A DNA stretch of 10,358 bases from a virus: the UHGV virus genome UHGV-0379321. One strand, 5' to 3'. A model generated the notes under the pieces. That model was given only the letters and a program-made list of their open reading frames with translations, had not been told where the DNA came from and ran no database searches. Made by a program: the position numbers and the translations under genes. Positions within the stretch are counted from its first letter, which is position 1. Each line of letters starts with the position of its first letter. Shown here in pieces: positions 3,481 to 10,358 of this stretch.

Positions 3481-3515
3481 CCCAAATAAAAAGGCCTGCG
3501 ATTACCAGCAGGCCT
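3481..3515 (-). terminator. Intrinsic terminator downstream of the helicase gene
   Basis: On the minus strand: 8-bp stem AGGCCTGC / GCAGGCCT with an 8-nt loop, followed by TTTTTATTTGGG; lies between the helicase stop (3541) and the next RBS. Confidence 0.6.
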
Positions 3516-3540
3516 GTTATTAGCTCAGTGATGTAGATGG

Positions 3541-5934
3541 TCATACGTCAGCCCCTTGTGCATATCGTCTGCCACGCGCAGCAGGTGCATTTGATGCTGT
3601 GCAAATCTGTCTGGCTTCATCCTGGTCACATGCAACAAAGTGTCCGTTACAGAACCGCTGGTAAACCGTACCAAGTGAGCCAAAACGGTTTTTCGTCACG
3701 ATGATTTCAGCAAATGGCGCGGCGCTACTGTTCTCGTCATATACCGCTTCCCGATAGAGCATGATGATTGAGTCTGCGTCCTGCTCAATGCTTCCTGAAT
3801 CACGCAAATCTGCGTTTGTCGGGCGTTTGTTTGGTCGCTTCTCAACATCGCGAGAAAGCTGACTTAGGGAGATAACAGGCGTTTTCAGGTCTTTCGCCAT
3901 CGCCTTCAGGCTTCCGGAGATGTGAGCAATTGCGAGGTCGTTGCGGTCTGCTTTCGGCTTCTCAATCAGGCCAAGATAATCCGCCATGATGAGTGACAGG
4001 TTTGGATTTTCCTGTTTGTGTCGTTCTGCGATTGAGCGTATTTCTTCGACCGATAACCGCGAGGCATCGACTACCCATACATCCAAATCCGCAAGCTGAC
4101 TCATGCCGTTAGCAACGCGCGCCCAGCCTTCGTCATCCATCGCTGCAGGATTTCGCAGTACGCTAACCGACATCCTCCCGGCGTTGGCAATACTTCGCTC
4201 TGCAATCTGCAATGCGCTCATTTCCATTGAGAAAATCAATACTCCGCGCCGGACGTCAGAACCAGGAATAACACGGCTTGCAACGCCTTCGGCAATCTTC
4301 AGCGCCAGTTCCGTATTGTGCGTAACGATGTAATCCGTTGTCACATAGAGATGGCTAGGATGGCTTACCATGATGCAGAGACACTCTTCTGGCTCAACAA
4401 CTTCAACCGATTTGATACCCACACCAAGGTCGCCAAGCCTGTTAATCCCGAGATTTTTGCGTAAACGTGGTGAGTGAATTTGCTCTATCAAAGATGATGG
4501 CAACTTCATGCTGACCATGTGTGCATCAAGTCCGTCATGCTTCTCTCCTTTGTACGTGTAAACTATTCCCGTCCTGCTGGATTCTTTGGCGGTTCCACCT
4601 AAAGATCTAGCAAGCCTTACTAATCCTTTAGCTAATTTCTGACTGGATGAACTAAAGCGGATGCATCCGGACTTCTCAACCCAGCCATCTGTCTCGAGAA
4701 GGCCAGTTAAAACACCGGTACGTATTTCTTTGCTAGCACTAAAAATTTCTGCTGGGATTTCCTTCTCGGACGCACCTTTCCCGATCACCCCAATGCCACG
4801 TAGTTTGTCCAATAGTGGGTTCTTCTGGCCTTTTTGGTTGCTTATCAAATAATCATTCTCTCCTACCTTAACCAGTCGCAATGGTGCAATTGCATCACTC
4901 ATGCGGCTCAGGACATATTCTTCCGAGTTGGTGAATTTGATGCCTTTTATCAACGAACCGTCACCAAGTAGAGCACCAATAACCCAACCATCAAGGGAAA
5001 TATTTTTACCAAAGTCTCCGGTCAAGGATGGCACTCTTATTCTTCCCTGATAACGTGTTTTTTGTAGCATCCCAGCCAGCGCATCAGTATCAACAACGCG
5101 TTTACCAGTAAATCTTGATGATGAAATTTCCCATAAGTGGTTGTCGGCACATTTCACGCTACGTCCGTCTTCAAAGGTGACTAAATATGTGAATTTCTTC
5201 CCTTGTGGGAAGACGCCAATTACCTCCGAAGGAAGCCCGTCTATTGACGCGATGCGATCGCCAATTTTGACTTCTCCGTGAGTAGTCCAGGTGCCATCTG
5301 CAAGTAAAATCCCTTCGCTTAGCGCCATTGCTTTCCCCATACCAGGACGAGCAGCGATTATCACCAGGTCTTCCGCGTTCATCCCTCCGGTGATGGCGTC
5401 AAGTTCTTCGATTCCGGTCTTCAGGGTATCTGACTCTTCTCCGTTCCTCAGGCGCCTGTCAAGCGTGTCAGTGTAGTCAGTGATGATTTCCCCTAACCGT
5501 ACAGGTTTAACCTCGTCACGGGGCTTTCTGATGGCTGAGAGACGCTTTACAAGCTCGTCCATCGCCTGACTCGATGTATCGATGGTTCCGTTCTGAATTG
5601 GTTCACGCATTTCATCCATGATTTCCAGCACCAGACGGCGGTGATAGTTATCCGCGACCATTCCGGCATATCCCTTCAGGTTTGCGGCACTCGGGCAGTT
5701 TTTGCTGGTCATCAGGATTGACGTGAAATGCTCCTCTCCGCACGCCTCGGCAACCATCAGCGCGTCGATTAGGTTTCTGTTTCGCGCCTGCTTGCGGATA
5801 ACCTCGAAGGCTTTCCGGTAGAGCGGAATTGAAAACGCTTCCGGCTCCAGCGTTGCCAGAACGTCACTGGCAGTTGGTGTTAATCCACCAATCAGCAGAC
5901 CACCGATAACGCTCGCTTCGATATCCTGTCTCAT
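3541..5934 (-). CDS. Replicative DnaB-family helicase (P22 gene 12-type) interrupted by an intein; 797-aa precursor, 458-aa predicted spliced product
   Basis: DnaB N-terminal domain ([14 protein letters not shown]), Walker A split as ...[10 protein letters not shown] | intein | [10 protein letters not shown]..., DnaB motif [15 protein letters not shown]. Start ATG overlaps the O stop (ATGA). Confidence 0.9.
4315..5331 (-). mobile_element. Intein (339 aa) with LAGLIDADG homing-endonuclease domain, inserted between Lys and Thr of the helicase P-loop; class-3-like
   Basis: Starts with Ala after GMGK, ends in HN followed by +1 Thr. Two LAGLIDADG-type motifs ([15 protein letters not shown] and [15 protein letters not shown]). 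Block-B-like CADNHLW with Trp, a Cys in the F-block region (EECLCIMV) and Thr in VTHN fit the WCT pattern of class 3 inteins. Removing it restores GMGKTELAL. Confidence 0.8.
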
Positions 5935-6878
5935 GCAATCCCCCTGTCTGCAAACTTCCCTTCCCGAACTCCCGTTAACGAGTCTTCCCTCAGCAGGTAA
6001 TCAAAATCTGCCGTCCAGCCCGTGTCGTTGTCTCCGAAGTAAAACGGCTTGGCCTGATGTACAAACGCCCTGACATACGCTCTGAAACCGTCCACGTTTG
6101 GCGTTTTCAGTTGCGGGATGATTTTCTTCAGGCGGCGTTTGCGTTTCTCGTTGACCGCAACAGCGTGTGGCAGTCTGTCACCAACTTCGGTGTTGTAGGC
6201 GTTCAGGAAGGATTCGTAGTCGATGCGTTCTGCCTTGCGACGTTCAGGTTTAACCTGCCCATCGCCTCCCCCATTGGGGGGTAGGGGGGTATTATTTATA
6301 TTCTTGTTAATACCTTCTTGTTCATGATGTGCGGTTGTTTGTGCGGCTTCATGTGCGCTTTCATGTGCGGCATGTACGCTGAATGCCGCGCCATTACTGG
6401 CTTCATCATGTGCGGCATCATGTGCGGTTGTTTGTGCGGCTTCATGTGCGGGTGAATTGTCCATTTTTTGAGCATATTCATGGTAATTTGTGATGGTTAT
6501 CACACGACCTTTTTGCTTCTCCCCATCAATGGAGATCATCCCCTCTTTCACAAAAACCTGAAGCATCCGCTCAACCTGATCACGGCTTGCCGGCTTGCCA
6601 TGCCTGTCGCATAACTGAAGACCTAAATCAGCTGCTGTCACAACCAGTTGACCGGGTTGCAGATGCCATTCATGACCTTTGAAATTCGCTTTGTATGGCT
6701 TTCTGGCAGCATTCAGGAGAAGGTTTTCCCACAGGGTGCGAAGATAAACATCTTTCGCCCATGACTGTTTCAGAATGCTCCGGTACAACGGAATGTAACC
6801 AGTTTTCTGGTTCTCCATCCTGTTGCTCCTGCGCTCGTGTGCGGCGATGAAATCGTAGATTTTTGCTGTATTGCTCAT
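5931..6878 (-). CDS. O: Replication initiator, lambda O-like N-terminus, with internal origin
   Basis: N-terminus [10 protein letters not shown] resembles lambda O (MTNTAKILNF). Central low-complexity His/Ala-rich linker is encoded by the repeat array; C-terminal domain differs from lambda O, consistent with pairing to a DnaB-type helicase. ATG 6876-6878. Confidence 0.8.
6327..6451. repeat. Candidate replication origin iterons (about 9 copies of ATGTGCGG-like units in two blocks) inside the O gene
   Basis: Units (A/T)TGTGCG(G/C) at 6327, 6339, 6351, 6363, 6372, 6408, 6420, 6432, 6444; a 36-bp block at 6323-6358 is repeated almost exactly at 6417-6452. An AT-rich stretch and the palindrome CCCCCA-T-TGGGGG lie just downstream (6272-6320), as in the lambda ori layout. 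Confidence 0.55.
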
Positions 6879-7175: not shown

Positions 7176-7472
7176 TTAAAATTCCATTTGTATTTGATCA
7201 GAACGCTCGGTTGCCGCCGGGCGTTTTTTATTGGTGAGTCCATCAAGCGCATACTTAAAAGCCCTGCTAATCGGACTGATGTCTGATGCCATTCCGAAAG
7301 CACACAAGACCGAAGCAATAAACCGCCAGTCGGTACGACTGATCTTCGATTCATGACAGCCAATCATCTTTGCCAGACCGCGCTGGGTAAGCGTTGACAG
7401 GTTGATGAGTAAATCTGTTTCTGCGCGATCAACGTCGCGCTGTGATAGTTTGCTGTAACTTGTTTGTTCCAT
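7176..7472 (-). CDS. cII: CII-like transcriptional activator (lysogeny establishment)
   Basis: C-terminus LTNKKRPAATERSDQIQMEF matches lambda CII (ILTNKKRPAATERSEQIQMEF); HTH region GLAKMIGCHESKISR aligns with lambda CII; AGGTAGG RBS. Confidence 0.85.
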   Translation of the reverse strand: MEQTSYSKLSQRDVDRAETDLLINLSTLTQRGLAKMIGCHESKISRTDWRFIASVLCAFGMASDISPISRAFKYALDGLTNKKRPAATERSDQIQMEF

Positions 7473-7490
7473 TACCTACCTATTTCCATA

Positions 7491-7525
7491 GGTAAATAAT
7501 CACTAATACTCATCTTTCGATGAGT
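7491..7525 (-). terminator. Candidate tR1-like stem-loop between nutR and cII
   Basis: Minus strand: ACTCATC-GAAA-GATGAGT (7-bp stem, GNRA loop) extended by outer AATCACT/AGTGATT pairing, followed by a moderately U-rich tail. Position matches lambda tR1; terminator function not demonstrated. Confidence 0.35.
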
Positions 7526-7537
7526 GATTAATTAGTT

Positions 7538-7572
7538 ACCGCGTTGTCGGCGGTGCAGATTGATAAAGAGCG
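7538..7572 (-). promoter_or_regulatory. nutR site: boxA (CGCTCTTTATCAA) plus P22-type boxB (ACCGCCGACAACGCGGT)
   Basis: Read on the minus strand directly downstream of cro. BoxA matches the consensus; boxB has a 5-bp stem and GACAA-containing loop, matching P22 nutR as recalled and consistent with the P22-type N in this window. Confidence 0.7.
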
Positions 7573-7582
7573 GATCCGCTTA

Positions 7583-7798
7583 TTAAGCGGCTTTGTGTTC
7601 CGGTGGGAACACGTCATCAAGACTGACTTTTGCGCCTAACTTGTTTAGGCACGCAACAAGAGCACGGCATGTTTTAAGGTCTGGGAAGCGACGACCAGAT
7701 TCCCAATGTCCGATAGCTCCCTGTGTGCATCCAACCGCCTTAGCAAGTGTTGTTTGAGAGATATTCAGTGACTCTCGATATTTTCGTAGGTTGCTCAT
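7583..7798 (-). CDS. cro: Cro-like HTH repressor (XRE family), 71 aa
   Basis: MSNLRKYRESLNISQTTLAKAVGCTQGAIGHWESGRRFPDL...; ATG 7796-7798 with GGAGGG RBS; divergent from cI across the operator region; shares the TQGxIGHW motif with the cI N-terminus. The six-frame ORF extending to 7969 is not favoured. Confidence 0.75.
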   Translation of the reverse strand: MSNLRKYRESLNISQTTLAKAVGCTQGAIGHWESGRRFPDLKTCRALVACLNKLGAKVSLDDVFPPEHKAA

Positions 7799-7824
7799 AT
7801 GCCCTCCATAGTAACCATGAAACA

Positions 7825-7853
7825 ATAATACGATATGTACTTTTTGAATGCAA
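7825..7853 (-). promoter_or_regulatory. Candidate PR promoter for cro (-35 TTGCAT, 17-bp spacer, -10 TATTAT) overlapping an operator site
   Basis: Hexamers read on the minus strand; the 13-bp GTAC-N5-GTA motif at 7828-7840 sits within the spacer and -10. Confidence 0.45.
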
Positions 7854-7899
7854 ACAAAAAATACATCTTGTGCATGGATGGTTTTAGTACAGAGCGTAA
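7828..7899. promoter_or_regulatory. OR operator region: two 13-bp GTAC-N5-GTA sites (7828-7840 and 7887-7899)
   Basis: GTACATATCGTAT (minus orientation) and GTACAGAGCGTAA share their core with GTACACATCGTAC at PL (8708-8720); located between divergent cro and cI. Confidence 0.45.
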
Positions 7900-7909
7900 T
7901 AATAAGGAT

Positions 7910-8569
7910 ATGAAAATGAAATGGTATGAACTGGCTAGATCCAGAATGAAAGAACTCGGCATAACTCAAGAGAAGTTAGCTGAAGAGCTTGGTATGACGC
8001 AGGGTGGAATTGGTCACTGGTTGCGCGGATCTCGTCATCCATCTCTTGACGAGATTGGTGTGGTGTTTAAATACCTTGGTATTGATAACGTCTCATTCAA
8101 CCACGACGGTACATTTTCACCTGTTGGCGAATACTCATCTGCCCCCGTTAAAAAACAATATGAGTACCCTGTTTTTTCTCATGTTCAGGCCGGGATGTTC
8201 TCGCCTGAGCTTAGAACCTTTACCAAAGGCGATGCGGAGAGATGGGTCAGCACAACCAAAAAAGCCAGTGATTGTGCGTTTTGGCTTGAAGTTGAAGGTA
8301 ATTCCATGACCGCACCAACAGGATCCAAGCCAAGCTTTCCTGACGGGATGTTAATTCTCGTTGACCCTGAGCAGGCTGTTGAGCCAGGTGATTTCTGCAT
8401 AGCCAGACTTGGTGGTGACGAGTTTACCTTCAAGAAACTGATCAGGGATAGCGGTCAGGTGTTCCTACAACCACTAAACCCGCAATATCCAATGATCCCA
8501 TGCAATGATAGCTGTTCCGTAGTAGGGAAAGTTATCGCCAGCCAGTGGCCTGAAGAGACATTTAGTTAA
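7910..8569 (+). CDS. cI: CI repressor: non-lambda N-terminal HTH domain fused to a lambda-type C-terminal S24 autopeptidase domain
   Basis: From [38 protein letters not shown]... to the end it is near-identical to lambda cI as recalled, including the GNSMTAPTG and FKKLIRD catalytic region. N-terminus ([36 protein letters not shown]) differs. Start ATG 7910 or 7916 (AAGGA RBS); the ORF from 7835 would leave no room for operators. Confidence 0.9.
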
Positions 8570-8600
8570 CAGCCTCACCACTCTAAAACACACAACAATA

Positions 8601-8630
8601 ACCCGACCTTAGCGTCGGGTTTTCTTTTTC
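8601..8630 (+). terminator. Intrinsic terminator downstream of cI
   Basis: 7-bp stem ACCCGAC/GTCGGGT, 6-nt loop, then TTTCTTTTT. Confidence 0.7.
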
Positions 8631-8694
8631 CAAAATATAAATCAATAAAATACAAAGTGTTATAAAAAACTAACCGCATTTAGAACATTTTGTA

Positions 8695-8723
8695 TTGACT
8701 CAATAAAGTACACATCGTACTAT
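8695..8723 (+). promoter_or_regulatory. Candidate PL promoter (-35 TTGACT, 17-bp spacer, -10 TACTAT) with overlapping OL operator site GTACACATCGTAC (8708-8720)
   Basis: Good -35/-10 match with correct spacing, about 45 nt upstream of nutL boxA; the operator motif is shared with OR. Confidence 0.55.
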
Positions 8724-8769
8724 TTAGCCATCAGCAGGAAGCTGGAAGCCAAACGGAACAGATTGGCAG

Positions 8770-8803
8770 GCTCTTTAACTTCGATGGTGCGCTGACAAAG
8801 CGC
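8770..8803 (+). promoter_or_regulatory. nutL site: boxA (GCTCTTTAA) plus boxB hairpin GCGCTGACAAAGCGC (P22-type)
   Basis: BoxB is identical to P22 nutL boxB as recalled (stem GCGC, GACAA-containing loop); boxA lies 10 nt upstream; located between PL and N. Confidence 0.8.
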
Positions 8804-8921
8804 GAACAGATACCAAACGAGATGGGTTTGGGGTGATGTGAATTGCAGCAGTAACGACAGCAACCAGAAGATCAGCATCTGGCGCATCACCACCAAAGCC
8901 ATTTCACATGAGGAAAACATC

Positions 8922-9230
8922 ATGACGGTAATCGTGTACGGAAAATCAACATTTGCAGGAAATGCCAAAACTCGCCGTCATGAGCGGCGCAGAAAGCTGG
9001 CTATCGAGCGTGATTCCATCTGCAACATCATCGATTCGATCTTCGGCACAGACAGTGAGGAAGCTGTTCAGGAAGAACCGAGAAAGCGTTTAAGTCTTTC
9101 TGAAAAAGCAATATCACTCGGCATCATCAGTAAATCAAATACAGATGCGAATGGCGGAAGCGTTTGTTTGCCTGAAGTTGCACTGTATGCTGCTGGTTAC
9201 AGGTCAATGAAATCAATTACGGCGAGATAG
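8922..9230 (+). CDS. N: Antitermination protein N, P22 gene 24-type
   Basis: MTVIVYGKSTFAGNAKTRRHERRRKLAIERDSICNIIDSIFG...GGSVCLPEVALYAAGYRSMKSITAR closely matches P22 gp24 including the arginine-rich RNA-binding motif; GAGGAAAA RBS. The longer six-frame ORF from 8838 is not favoured. Confidence 0.85.
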   Translation: MTVIVYGKSTFAGNAKTRRHERRRKLAIERDSICNIIDSIFGTDSEEAVQEEPRKRLSLSEKAISLGIISKSNTDANGGSVCLPEVALYAAGYRSMKSITAR

Positions 9231-9232
9231 AA

Positions 9233-9499
9233 ATGACTAGCAAACAAGTATCATATAAATGCTATTGCCCTTTATGTGGAAGAAAATTCAGCGCCAAGGC
9301 AGCATGGAAGCATATCAATGATTATCATCCAAAAGCATCAGAACGTGAGTTGATGATGATAAGAGATGTAAAACGAGAAAAAATTTCTTTCGCAACAAAG
9401 CCACTAAACGCCAACAAAAACGCAATATTGTATCAAATGCATCGTTCAAGTGGTCCAGATTATTCTGGAGGGCTTCCATCTCTTGGAAAGAAAAAATAA
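9233..9499 (+). CDS. Hypothetical 88-aa basic protein with a C2H2-like zinc-finger pattern
   Basis: CPLCGRKFSAKAAWKHINDYH fits C-x2-C-x12-H-x4-H. Starts 3 nt after the N stop; RBS is weak, so coding status is uncertain. Confidence 0.45.
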   Translation: MTSKQVSYKCYCPLCGRKFSAKAAWKHINDYHPKASERELMMIRDVKREKISFATKPLNANKNAILYQMHRSSGPDYSGGLPSLGKKK

Positions 9500-9525
9500 C
9501 CACGCTCACGCTGGTTTTTAATGAC

Positions 9526-9624
9526 ATAAATAACCGTATTTACTACCGCAAGCCACGCAGTGAAATGGGTGTGACTTGTGTTGGTCGCCAGAAAATGAAA
9601 TTAGGCAGCAAACCACTTATTTGA
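9526..9624 (+). pseudogene. 3' remnant of a lambda/21-type N gene (last ~30 codons, no start codon)
   Basis: Translation NNRIYYRKPRSEMGVTCVGRQKMKLGSKPLI* matches the C-terminus of lambda N (...YSKPGERGITCSGRQKIKGKSIPLI) and, more closely, phage 21 N as recalled. The frame is open back to 9349 but has no plausible start; its stop abuts the next gene's RBS. Confidence 0.55.
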
Positions 9625-9632
9625 GGTGAGAT

Positions 9633-9956
9633 ATGGAAGCATTAGTAGTAGAGCGAAGCGAGGATGGCTACTGGACGCACCCAGAATACGCCAACCTGTT
9701 TGGGGATAGAGAGGTAATTTCAGCTGATGAGTTCAGATCTTTCTGCAAGCAGCATGGCATTGAATCATCAATTGTTGAAATGGAAAACGACAACAATCAA
9801 ACGGTAATTGACGCGTATTTTGAAGATGGGAATCAAAACATCAGTGGATGGGAGCCAAGCATGCCAGATGGAGAAGGATGGTTTGTCGGTTCGATTCACG
9901 ATACAGAAGACGGTCCGATCTGCGTTTGGTTCAGGAATGTAGATAAGGCCGAATAG
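9633..9956 (+). CDS. Hypothetical strongly acidic 107-aa protein
   Basis: GAGGTGAG RBS 2-9 nt upstream of the ATG; about 24 Asp/Glu against 6 Lys/Arg; no family recognised; sits in the early-left operon where lambda carries ral. Confidence 0.55.
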   Translation: MEALVVERSEDGYWTHPEYANLFGDREVISADEFRSFCKQHGIESSIVEMENDNNQTVIDAYFEDGNQNISGWEPSMPDGEGWFVGSIHDTEDGPICVWFRNVDKAE

Positions 9957-9971
9957 TCGGCCTTTATTTTT
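9947..9971 (+). terminator. Intrinsic terminator after the acidic ORF
   Basis: Stem GGCCGA/TCGGCC, loop ATAG (contains the stop codon), followed by TTTATTTTT. Confidence 0.65.
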
Positions 9972-9991
9972 GGCATAAACAACAGAATAAA

Positions 9992-10037
9992 CATTGCACT
10001 GTGTATTCATTCCAACGAGTGAATACACGGAGCAATG
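9992..10037. repeat. 46-bp imperfect palindrome (18-nt arms, 16/18 complementary, 10-nt spacer)
   Basis: CATTGCACTGTGTATTCA ... TGAATACACGGAGCAATG; inner 9-bp arms GTGTATTCA/TGAATACAC are perfect. Lies between two intrinsic terminators in an intergenic region. Confidence 0.6.
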
Positions 10038-10090
10038 TCGCTCGTAACTAAACAGGAGCCGACTTGTTCTGATTATTGGAAATCTTCTTT

Positions 10091-10118
10091 GCCCTCCGAT
10101 GTGAGGGCGATTTTTTTT
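10091..10118 (+). terminator. Intrinsic terminator (possibly N-antiterminated) upstream of the next early gene
   Basis: Stem GCCCTC/GAGGGC, loop CGATGT, followed by an 8-T run; directly followed by a GGAGG RBS and ATG at 10131. Confidence 0.6.
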
Positions 10119-10130
10119 GATGGAGGATAT

Positions 10131-10358
10131 ATGAGTGAAGTAACAGATTTAGTTGTTATTGAAAAAGCAAATGCAATGACTGTATTTCAGTCTGCCGACC
10201 AGATTGAAGAAATTCTCCAAAAGGTTGAACGTGAAGTTATGTCCTTTGTGCCTGATATCACAACGGCAAAGGGCAGAAAGGAGATCGCTTCTCTGGCGTA
10301 TAAAGTTGCGCAGACGAAAACATATCTCGATGGTCTTGGCAAAGACCTTGTTGCTGAA
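10131..10358 (+). CDS. Hypothetical early-left-operon protein, 5' portion only (runs off the window)
   Basis: ATG at 10131 preceded by GGAGG; open frame to the window end (MSEVTDLVVIEKANAMTVFQSADQIEEILQKVEREV...). Absent from the ORF track because it has no stop within the window. Confidence 0.5.
   Translation, partial: MSEVTDLVVIEKANAMTVFQSADQIEEILQKVEREVMSFVPDITTAKGRKEIASLAYKVAQTKTYLDGLGKDLVAE

Follow-up and report, generated by a model that had tools for sequence, protein, structure and literature searches.

Results

Organisation of the early leftward operon

The stretch of DNA analysed here (the window, 10,358 nt of the virus genome UHGV-0379321) belongs to a mosaic lambdoid E. coli prophage, of which it covers the immunity, replication and early-left region. 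The top match to the whole region is E. coli GN04171, at 98.9% identity and covering 100% of positions 8700–10358. The leftward early operon lies on the + strand and runs from the repressor gene cI through a PL-like promoter, a boxB and the antiterminator gene N to a gene of 88 codons, orf88, and then, past a 133-nt spacer, to a gene of 107 codons, orf107. The repressor gene (7835–8569, +) carries Peptidase_S24 and HTH domains in Pfam. Between cI and N, a consensus scan found a PL-like sigma-70 promoter (TTGACT-17-TACTAT, 8695–8723, +), whose location relative to repressor and N fits PL and which we infer to function as such. The candidate nutL boxB of P22 type (GCGCTGACAAAGCGC, 8789–8803, +) is an exact and unique match, with none expected in shuffled sequences; we take it to be the boxB of the published P22 N-boxB complex. 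A boxA-like sequence, GGCTCTTTAAC, lies 5′ of it at ~8770–8780 and is presumably boxA. N (8922–9230, +; 102 aa) is of the P22/21 type, matching Pfam N_peptide with an E-value of 1.4e-36 and phrog_271, 'anti-termination protein N-like', and RefSeq calls the same 309-nt coding sequence. The promoter, the boxB and N together support the claim of an earlier first-pass annotation of this DNA that orf107 is expressed from PL right after N.

Downstream of orf107, the next gene of the PL operon begins at 10131 and runs off the window (10131–10358, +; 969 nt, with a coiled coil in relatives, where it is annotated as 'TolA' or 'coiled-coil domain-containing'). Its 76 visible residues had no Pfam match. 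Terminator-like sites are frequent in this part of the window, with eight observed in 7400–10358 as against 2.5 ± 1.9 in shuffled sequences. No RNA gene was detected in 8600–10358 by an Rfam scan at gathering thresholds or by a tRNA scan.

Elsewhere in the window, genes for tRNA-Thr(TGT) and tRNA-Asn(GTT) lie at the left end (191–346, −), adjoining a Q-like antiterminator region. A replicative-helicase-like ORF (3541–5934, −) is unusually long at 797 aa, and by eye, from the translation, its central block resembles an intein or homing-endonuclease insertion (…LLGDGS…, …TDGW…, …VTHN). The O-like replication protein (5931–6878, −) has an internal repeat rich in His and Ala, which probably reflects origin iterons inside the gene.

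orf107 is an orthologue of mEp213 orf184

Both small ORFs lie exactly where the first-pass annotation had placed them. orf107 (9633–9956, +) is preceded by the ribosome-binding site GAGGTGAGAT ahead of its ATG, and its product has 10 Asp and 14 Glu against 2 Lys and 4 Arg, giving a net charge of −18 and a pI of 4.11; the strong ribosome-binding site and the charge of about −18 were thus correctly described. Scans of Pfam, NCBIfam and PADLOC returned nothing above threshold for orf107 or orf88, and a sequence search of the PDB gave no match for orf107. The only family assignment obtained was to phrog_1372 (E 1.2e-43), for which PHROGs lists the function as unknown. Every public copy carries the name 'hypothetical'; the exact sequence is found on 295 contigs, and the allele is present in 41 of 5,426 complete E. 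coli genomes.

The first-pass annotation recognised neither protein, but orf107 has an orthologue with a published phenotype. Its product is 96–97% identical to AFM76385.1 of phage mEp213 (97.2% by tblastn over residues 1–106), which the accessory-gene screen of Silas et al. (bioRxiv 10.1101/2023.04.06.535777) lists as UDP0184, or orf184. Compared with the orf184 sequence in the supplement of that preprint, there are four differences in 107 aa (V28A, S36Y, Q68P and E107A). The orthologue is already known in the literature as an abortive-infection trigger.

The PL operon of mEp213 (L001) contains two N genes, one lambda-type (Pfam N36) and one P22-type (Pfam N_peptide), at 982–1314 and 2467–2739. 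A different small gene follows each of them, and one of the two encodes a 62-aa four-Cys zinc-ribbon-like protein.

orf107 occupies the slot of lambda ral

The first-pass annotation had also placed these genes in the position of lambda ral, which for orf107 is accurate almost to the base. At the orf107 stop the window again becomes homologous to lambda (94% over 178 bp): the match starts at 9953, at most 3 nt from the end of the gene, opposite the final base of the ral coding sequence (lambda 34087), and it continues through the ral-ea10 intergenic region to 10130. This non-coding right flank of the slot (9953–10130, +; 94% identical to lambda 33911–34087) is common to the orf107, Ral and Nmad5 variants described below. 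A terminator scan found a terminator-like hairpin (AAGGCCGA-ATAG-TCGGCCTT) with a T-run over the TAG stop of orf107 (9945–9964, +). The 3′ arm and tail of the hairpin are part of the flank homologous to lambda, and lambda ral has the same T-run and flank after it. The hairpin that had been read as a terminator dedicated to orf107 is therefore present but not dedicated; it is an element of the slot framework. As judged from the alignment, the 5′ arm is supplied by each cassette.

The right flank contains a second terminator-like site at 10089–10110, and its conservation amid mosaic DNA suggests a regulatory role. Its core (9996–10113, +; ~115 bp) has a perfect 9-bp inverted repeat, GTGTATTCA / TGAATACAC, ends in a terminator-like hairpin with a T8 run, and is kept in all cassette variants. 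No Rfam family matched it at the gathering score. It may act, for example, as a terminator or a processing site.

On the other side of orf107, translation and comparison with lambda N and mEp213 N1 identified a 3′ stump of a lambda-type N gene (…YYRKPRSEMGVTCVGRQKMKLGSKPLI*; 9502–9624, +), which carries the orf107 ribosome-binding site and encodes the C-terminal 40 residues of lambda-type N (…KPRSEMGVTCVGRQKMKLGSKPLI*). RefSeq calls its equivalent in a sibling prophage an 'incomplete N peptide'. The last ~45 nt of the stump, including the ribosome-binding site GGTGAGATATG and the start, are shared with the sequence 5′ of mEp213 orf184. The same ~45 nt also occur in the intact lambda-type N of mEp213, where they precede a different gene. 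This shared segment marks orf107 as a cassette that fills the first place behind a lambda-type N. By sequence comparison, the stump is the mosaic junction left when a P22-type N and orf88 recombined in upstream. In one database protein, P0036, a frameshift has fused orf88 to the N stump.

In sibling E. coli prophages whose cI-N-orf88 backbone is identical, the slot has different contents, namely Ral (L009), a gene of the Nmad5 family (L010), a pair encoding DUF7167 and DUF7446 proteins (L003), or orf107 together with a DUF2528 gene (L004). Ral fills the slot in L014 and L015 as well as in L009. The orf107 protein itself had no Pfam match to the Ral family (PF11058) and no BLASTP alignment to lambda Ral.

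orf88 encodes a C2H2-like finger protein linked to N

orf88 (9233–9499, +) starts 2 nt after the N stop and is probably translationally coupled to N. It encodes a basic 88-aa protein (pI 9.93, net charge +12) that belongs to phrog_20899, of unknown function. The C-x2-C-x12-H-x4-H motif reported in the first-pass annotation is present as a finger motif in residues 12–32, but its spacer is x11 and not x12 (C12-x2-C15-x11-H27-x4-H32). C12, C15, H27 and H32 are invariant down to a homologue from Arsenophonus at 46% identity; C10 is not conserved. Also invariant is the C-terminal tail, SGG[LI]PSLGKK[KR]. In the predicted model (mean pLDDT 49), strands at 9–11 and 18–20 are followed by helices at 21–31 and 37–48 and by a disordered tail. 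The C2H2-like assignment stands on the invariant ligands, with a beta-beta-alpha topology predicted at low confidence and all Pfam scores below the gathering thresholds (zf-C2H2, 14.1 vs. 25.2 bits; zf-Di19, 19.6 vs. 27.5; zf-C2H2_4, 14.9 vs. 27). A PDB sequence search likewise returned sub-threshold matches only, mostly classical C2H2 fingers along with a few antibody chains.

The orf88 family is small, with 10 clusters, 14 of the 5,426 E. coli genomes and a single phage record, and the exact sequence occurs on 849 contigs of E. coli and Salmonella. In every context examined, orf88 directly follows an N_peptide-type N, in E. coli with a 2-nt gap whichever repressor allele or cassette surrounds it. 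The Arsenophonus homologues (44–46% identity) lie 35 nt after a weak N_peptide match (E 4.4e-4). We found nothing that links orf88 to defence, its constant partner being N, and it is absent from the library of the published screen (Silas et al., bioRxiv 10.1101/2023.04.06.535777).

The orf107 module is widespread and acidic

A word-indexed search with orf107 returned 32 clusters, all from Enterobacterales. When the alignment of those 32 was used in an exhaustive profile search, 1,005 representative clusters were found at E ≤ 1e-3, with 492 at ≤ 1e-10. The ~1,005 homologous clusters of orf107, and the retention of all four ligands in orf88 homologues as distant as 46% identity, show that both are real genes and neither is a chance reading frame. 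The module is ~100 aa long, and tblastn located it in 84 phage genomes, of Burkholderia, Pseudomonas, Erwinia, Vibrio, Klebsiella, Yersinia and E. coli phages. Its net charge has a median of −15 and ranges from −21 to −3 (n = 151), which indicates that acidity is a selected property of the family.

About half of the best 150 of the 1,005 matches are longer proteins with the module at one end. A Pfam scan of 76 family members identified as fusion partners Lar_restr_allev (3 of 76), an Rv2179c-like 3′-5′ exoribonuclease (2), and Tad2-like (1 of 76), KTSC and DHH/DHHA1 domains (one each). Many of the other partners correspond to uncharacterised PHROG modules. A counter-defence reading is weakened by the small number of Lar and Tad2-like fusions and by how commonly early phage genes form promiscuous fusions.

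A second promiscuous module of ~95 aa (…ERxRQ…EGW…HDD…WPW…WKP…AGALILAEIERLDR) is recurrently fused N-terminally to the orf107 module, as in P0090, P0091, P0104, P0135 and P0102. It matches the C-terminal ends of phrog_6628, 9434, 9763 and others, all of unknown function. A by-eye guess that it is MazG/DUF550-like found no support in Pfam, NCBIfam or the PDB and was dropped.

Predicted structure of the orf107 protein

For structural analysis we used the published AlphaFold coordinates of the 96%-identical orthologue ORF184, from the preprint supplement, which passed geometry checks. The model (pLDDT 88, pTM 0.78) is a compact alpha/beta module of ~41 × 33 × 23 Å. A fold search found no match to any solved structure, DNA mimics included; comparison with known DNA-mimic folds was the check that the first-pass annotation had proposed, and its outcome leaves the DNA-mimic idea unsupported. 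The 23 carboxylates are spread evenly, with a resultant of 0.17–0.18 as compared with 0.15 ± 0.07 for random exposed residues (p 0.33). A permutation test for one-sidedness of the conserved acidic sites was also not significant (p 0.07).

Across 176 sequences, the most conserved residues form the buried core (W14, W73, P75, P78, W83, F84, I88, P95 and W99). The sole exposed or semi-exposed segment conserved family-wide is a hairpin tip, H89-D90-T91-E92-D93-G94, with positions 90, 92 and 93 acidic in 93, 95 and 88% of the 176 sequences. Exposed conserved residues cluster with a p of 0.006, a value that is inflated since many of these residues are sequence neighbours. As modelled, with predicted coordinates and Cβ-based burial estimates, the orf107 protein fits a protein-binding module with an acidic knob, unlike a DNA mimic of the Ocr or ArdA type.

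The orthologue triggers gop-beta-cII

orf184 is conditionally lethal in ECOR59, and suppressor transposons mapped to gop and beta of a P4-like satellite; expressing orf184 together with cloned gop-beta-cII reconstituted cell death in a lab strain (Silas et al., bioRxiv 10.1101/2023.04.06.535777). The satellite locus is itself a defence system: gop-beta-cII gives protection from lambda and P1, and in the absence of beta Gop is toxic (2022, PMC9122126). In the orf184 screen, the known counter-defence proteins Ocr, ArdA and Ral were also sensed by abortive-infection or cell-death systems of wild E. coli, and the triggers already known for abortive systems are in many cases ordinary phage proteins (bioRxiv 10.1101/2023.04.06.535777). 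The trigger experiment was done with the mEp213 allele, which differs from that in the window at the 4 of 107 residues given above. To orf184 the preprint attributes no counter-defence or restriction-relief phenotype, an absence of report and not a negative test (bioRxiv 10.1101/2023.04.06.535777). A second paper from Silas and colleagues (PMC12373910) has neither the orf88 nor the orf107 sequence and does not mention orf184 or gop.

We saw no orf107 homologue in lambda or P1, lambda being absent among the matches listed (40 of the 84 tblastn records). Since both phages are restricted by gop-beta-cII, a protein of the orf107 type is probably not the sole trigger of that system.

The prophage Rac-SA53 (L007, KU052037.1) has a member of the orf107 family, rac22, in its nin region (3492–3803, 43% identical). 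At 4884–6519 it encodes distant homologues of P4 cII (28%, E 2e-17) and of P4 beta (23%, E 1e-8), so that a relative of the trigger adjoins relatives of two parts of the triggered system. The distance from rac22 to the cII/beta-like pair is ~1.1 kb, with an IS1 in between, and no gop-sized ORF was seen beside the pair.

Discussion

The region between N and the coiled-coil gene carries two accessory genes of a mosaic lambdoid prophage, both in its early leftward operon. Our preferred reading, to which we give a probability of roughly 0.55, is that orf107, as the orthologue of orf184, encodes an acidic protein-binding inhibitor or decoy of the ral slot and that orf88 encodes an N-linked zinc-finger protein that binds nucleic acid or a host factor. 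orf107 is a self-contained cassette lying between the 3′ end of a lambda-type N, to its left, and the ral-ea10 intergenic element, to its right. Its product would be made early from PL with N-dependent read-through, and would use its acidic tip and surface for stoichiometric binding to a basic site of a host or defence protein, acting neither as an enzyme nor as a DNA mimic. The slot and the rare Lar and Tad2-like fusions suggest that such binding would serve counter-defence. In cells with gop-beta-cII, the presence of the orthologue has been shown to release the toxicity of Gop and to kill, which makes it an early-gene liability that a defence system senses. The orf88 protein, going by its low-confidence model, may bind nucleic acid or a host factor through its finger and dock through the invariant C-terminal tail.

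The earlier suggestion of a DNA mimic or anti-defence factor thus survives in part, in that orf107 is a ral-slot cassette with a real association with counter-defence genes, but the DNA-mimic component is unsupported and anti-defence activity is putative. In its strict form, this alternative makes orf107 an anti-restriction protein of the Ocr/ArdA/Arn kind that blocks type I restriction-modification or other DNA-binding defence enzymes as a functional substitute for Ral. The net charge of −18 and pI of 4.1, the acidity of the whole family, the ral slot, the Lar fusions in three family members and the triggering of cell-death systems by Ocr and ArdA in the same screen as orf184 would all suit it, but a protein that has no related fold and is an evenly charged globule instead of an elongated carboxylate array makes it unlikely. 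We regard it as somewhat more probable, though still doubtful, that orf107 has a role outside defence, in phage recombination or replication or in host physiology, and that gop-beta-cII just detects an abundant early protein. Triggers of abortive systems are often ordinary phage proteins (bioRxiv 10.1101/2023.04.06.535777), family members exist outside the PL slot (for example, the nin region in Rac-SA53 and early regions in Burkholderia phages), and the module is joined to partners of very many kinds (exonuclease, DHH, KTSC, HTH and numerous uncharacterised modules). Against this, the slot is alternately filled by Ral or by a 'putative' nucleotide-modification gene of the Nmad5 family, both restriction-evasion functions by family name, and orf107 is rare and patchy (41/5,426 E. 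coli genomes), as expected of an accessory and not a core gene. That orf107 is a distant immunity module of the SUKH type, able to neutralise a toxin or an effector domain, is very improbable: one protein, P0141, has marginal matches across the module (SMI1_KNR4, E 0.018; SUKH_6, E 0.085), but it is 1 of 76 members, and no SUKH structure was among the fold matches, so this lead was rejected.

For orf88, it is conceivable, if tentative, that the protein assists N-dependent antitermination or early transcription as an accessory factor, binding nut RNA, N, Nus factors or RNA polymerase, and has nothing to do with defence. The gene always lies directly after N while the repressor upstream and the cassette downstream vary, in the same order in Arsenophonus too, and its product combines a basic, nucleic-acid-type finger with an invariant tail typical of a docking peptide. 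Yet most N_peptide-type N genes are without orf88 (it is found in 14/5,426 E. coli genomes), so N does not need it; the linkage could reflect joint recombination as one module, and mEp213 has unrelated small genes directly after N. orf88 is in itself a minor curiosity, a rare zinc-finger gene locked to N.

A more speculative extension, which we hold at clearly less than even odds, is that the orf107 module defines a widespread unnamed class of counter-defence proteins (~1,000 clusters in Proteobacterial phages), acidic decoys or inhibitors whose acidic hairpin knob blocks a host nuclease or sensor and, separately, that orf88 is a zinc-finger partner of N-type antiterminators. If this were true, the module would work alone in the ral slot or, when fused to Lar, Tad2-like or nuclease domains, as part of a two-headed anti-defence protein, and P4 gop-beta-cII would be a guard that detects inhibition of the orf107 type. 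That system is one of a small number in abortive infection that have a defined protein trigger and no known mechanism. To the published trigger we add a large family (~1,005 clusters) not covered by any Pfam or NCBIfam model, a location in the ral slot that is exact almost to the base, a conserved acidity and one mutable acidic hairpin tip. The annotation of such genes can be changed from 'hypothetical protein' to 'orf184-family, gop-beta-cII trigger'.

How do the two proteins compare with known systems? The C2H2 and Di19 fingers (PF00096, PF05605) share with orf88 the CP-x-CG-[RK]-x-F knuckle, two Cys and two His ligands, and the hydrophobic Phe/Trp core pattern. In contrast to the canonical C-x2-4-C-x12-H-x3-5-H, the spacer of orf88 is one residue short, and the protein, from a bacterial virus, has just one finger, followed by a long disordered tail. 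The DNA mimics T7 Ocr, ArdA and T4 Arn are small, very acidic and early, like orf107, which differs from them in lacking the elongated carboxylate array and in having a conserved core of aromatic and Gly/Pro residues with one acidic hairpin tip. The Lar (PF14354) and Tad2-like (PF11195) domains are fused to an orf107-type module in P0076 and P0167 and in P0082, respectively, whereas orf107 is the bare module with neither domain; most members of PF14354 and PF11195 are uncharacterised. Lambda Ral (PF11058) occupies the same slot, with the same downstream flank and T-run, but is a 66-aa restriction-alleviation protein, while orf107 has 107 aa and is a candidate counter-defence gene. The closest counterpart is mEp213 orf184, which resembles orf107 in its ribosome-binding site, downstream flank, accessory region and homology over the full length. 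The two loci differ in the upstream neighbour, which in the window is a lambda-type N stump after N and orf88, and in mEp213 a second N gene and a 74-aa ORF.
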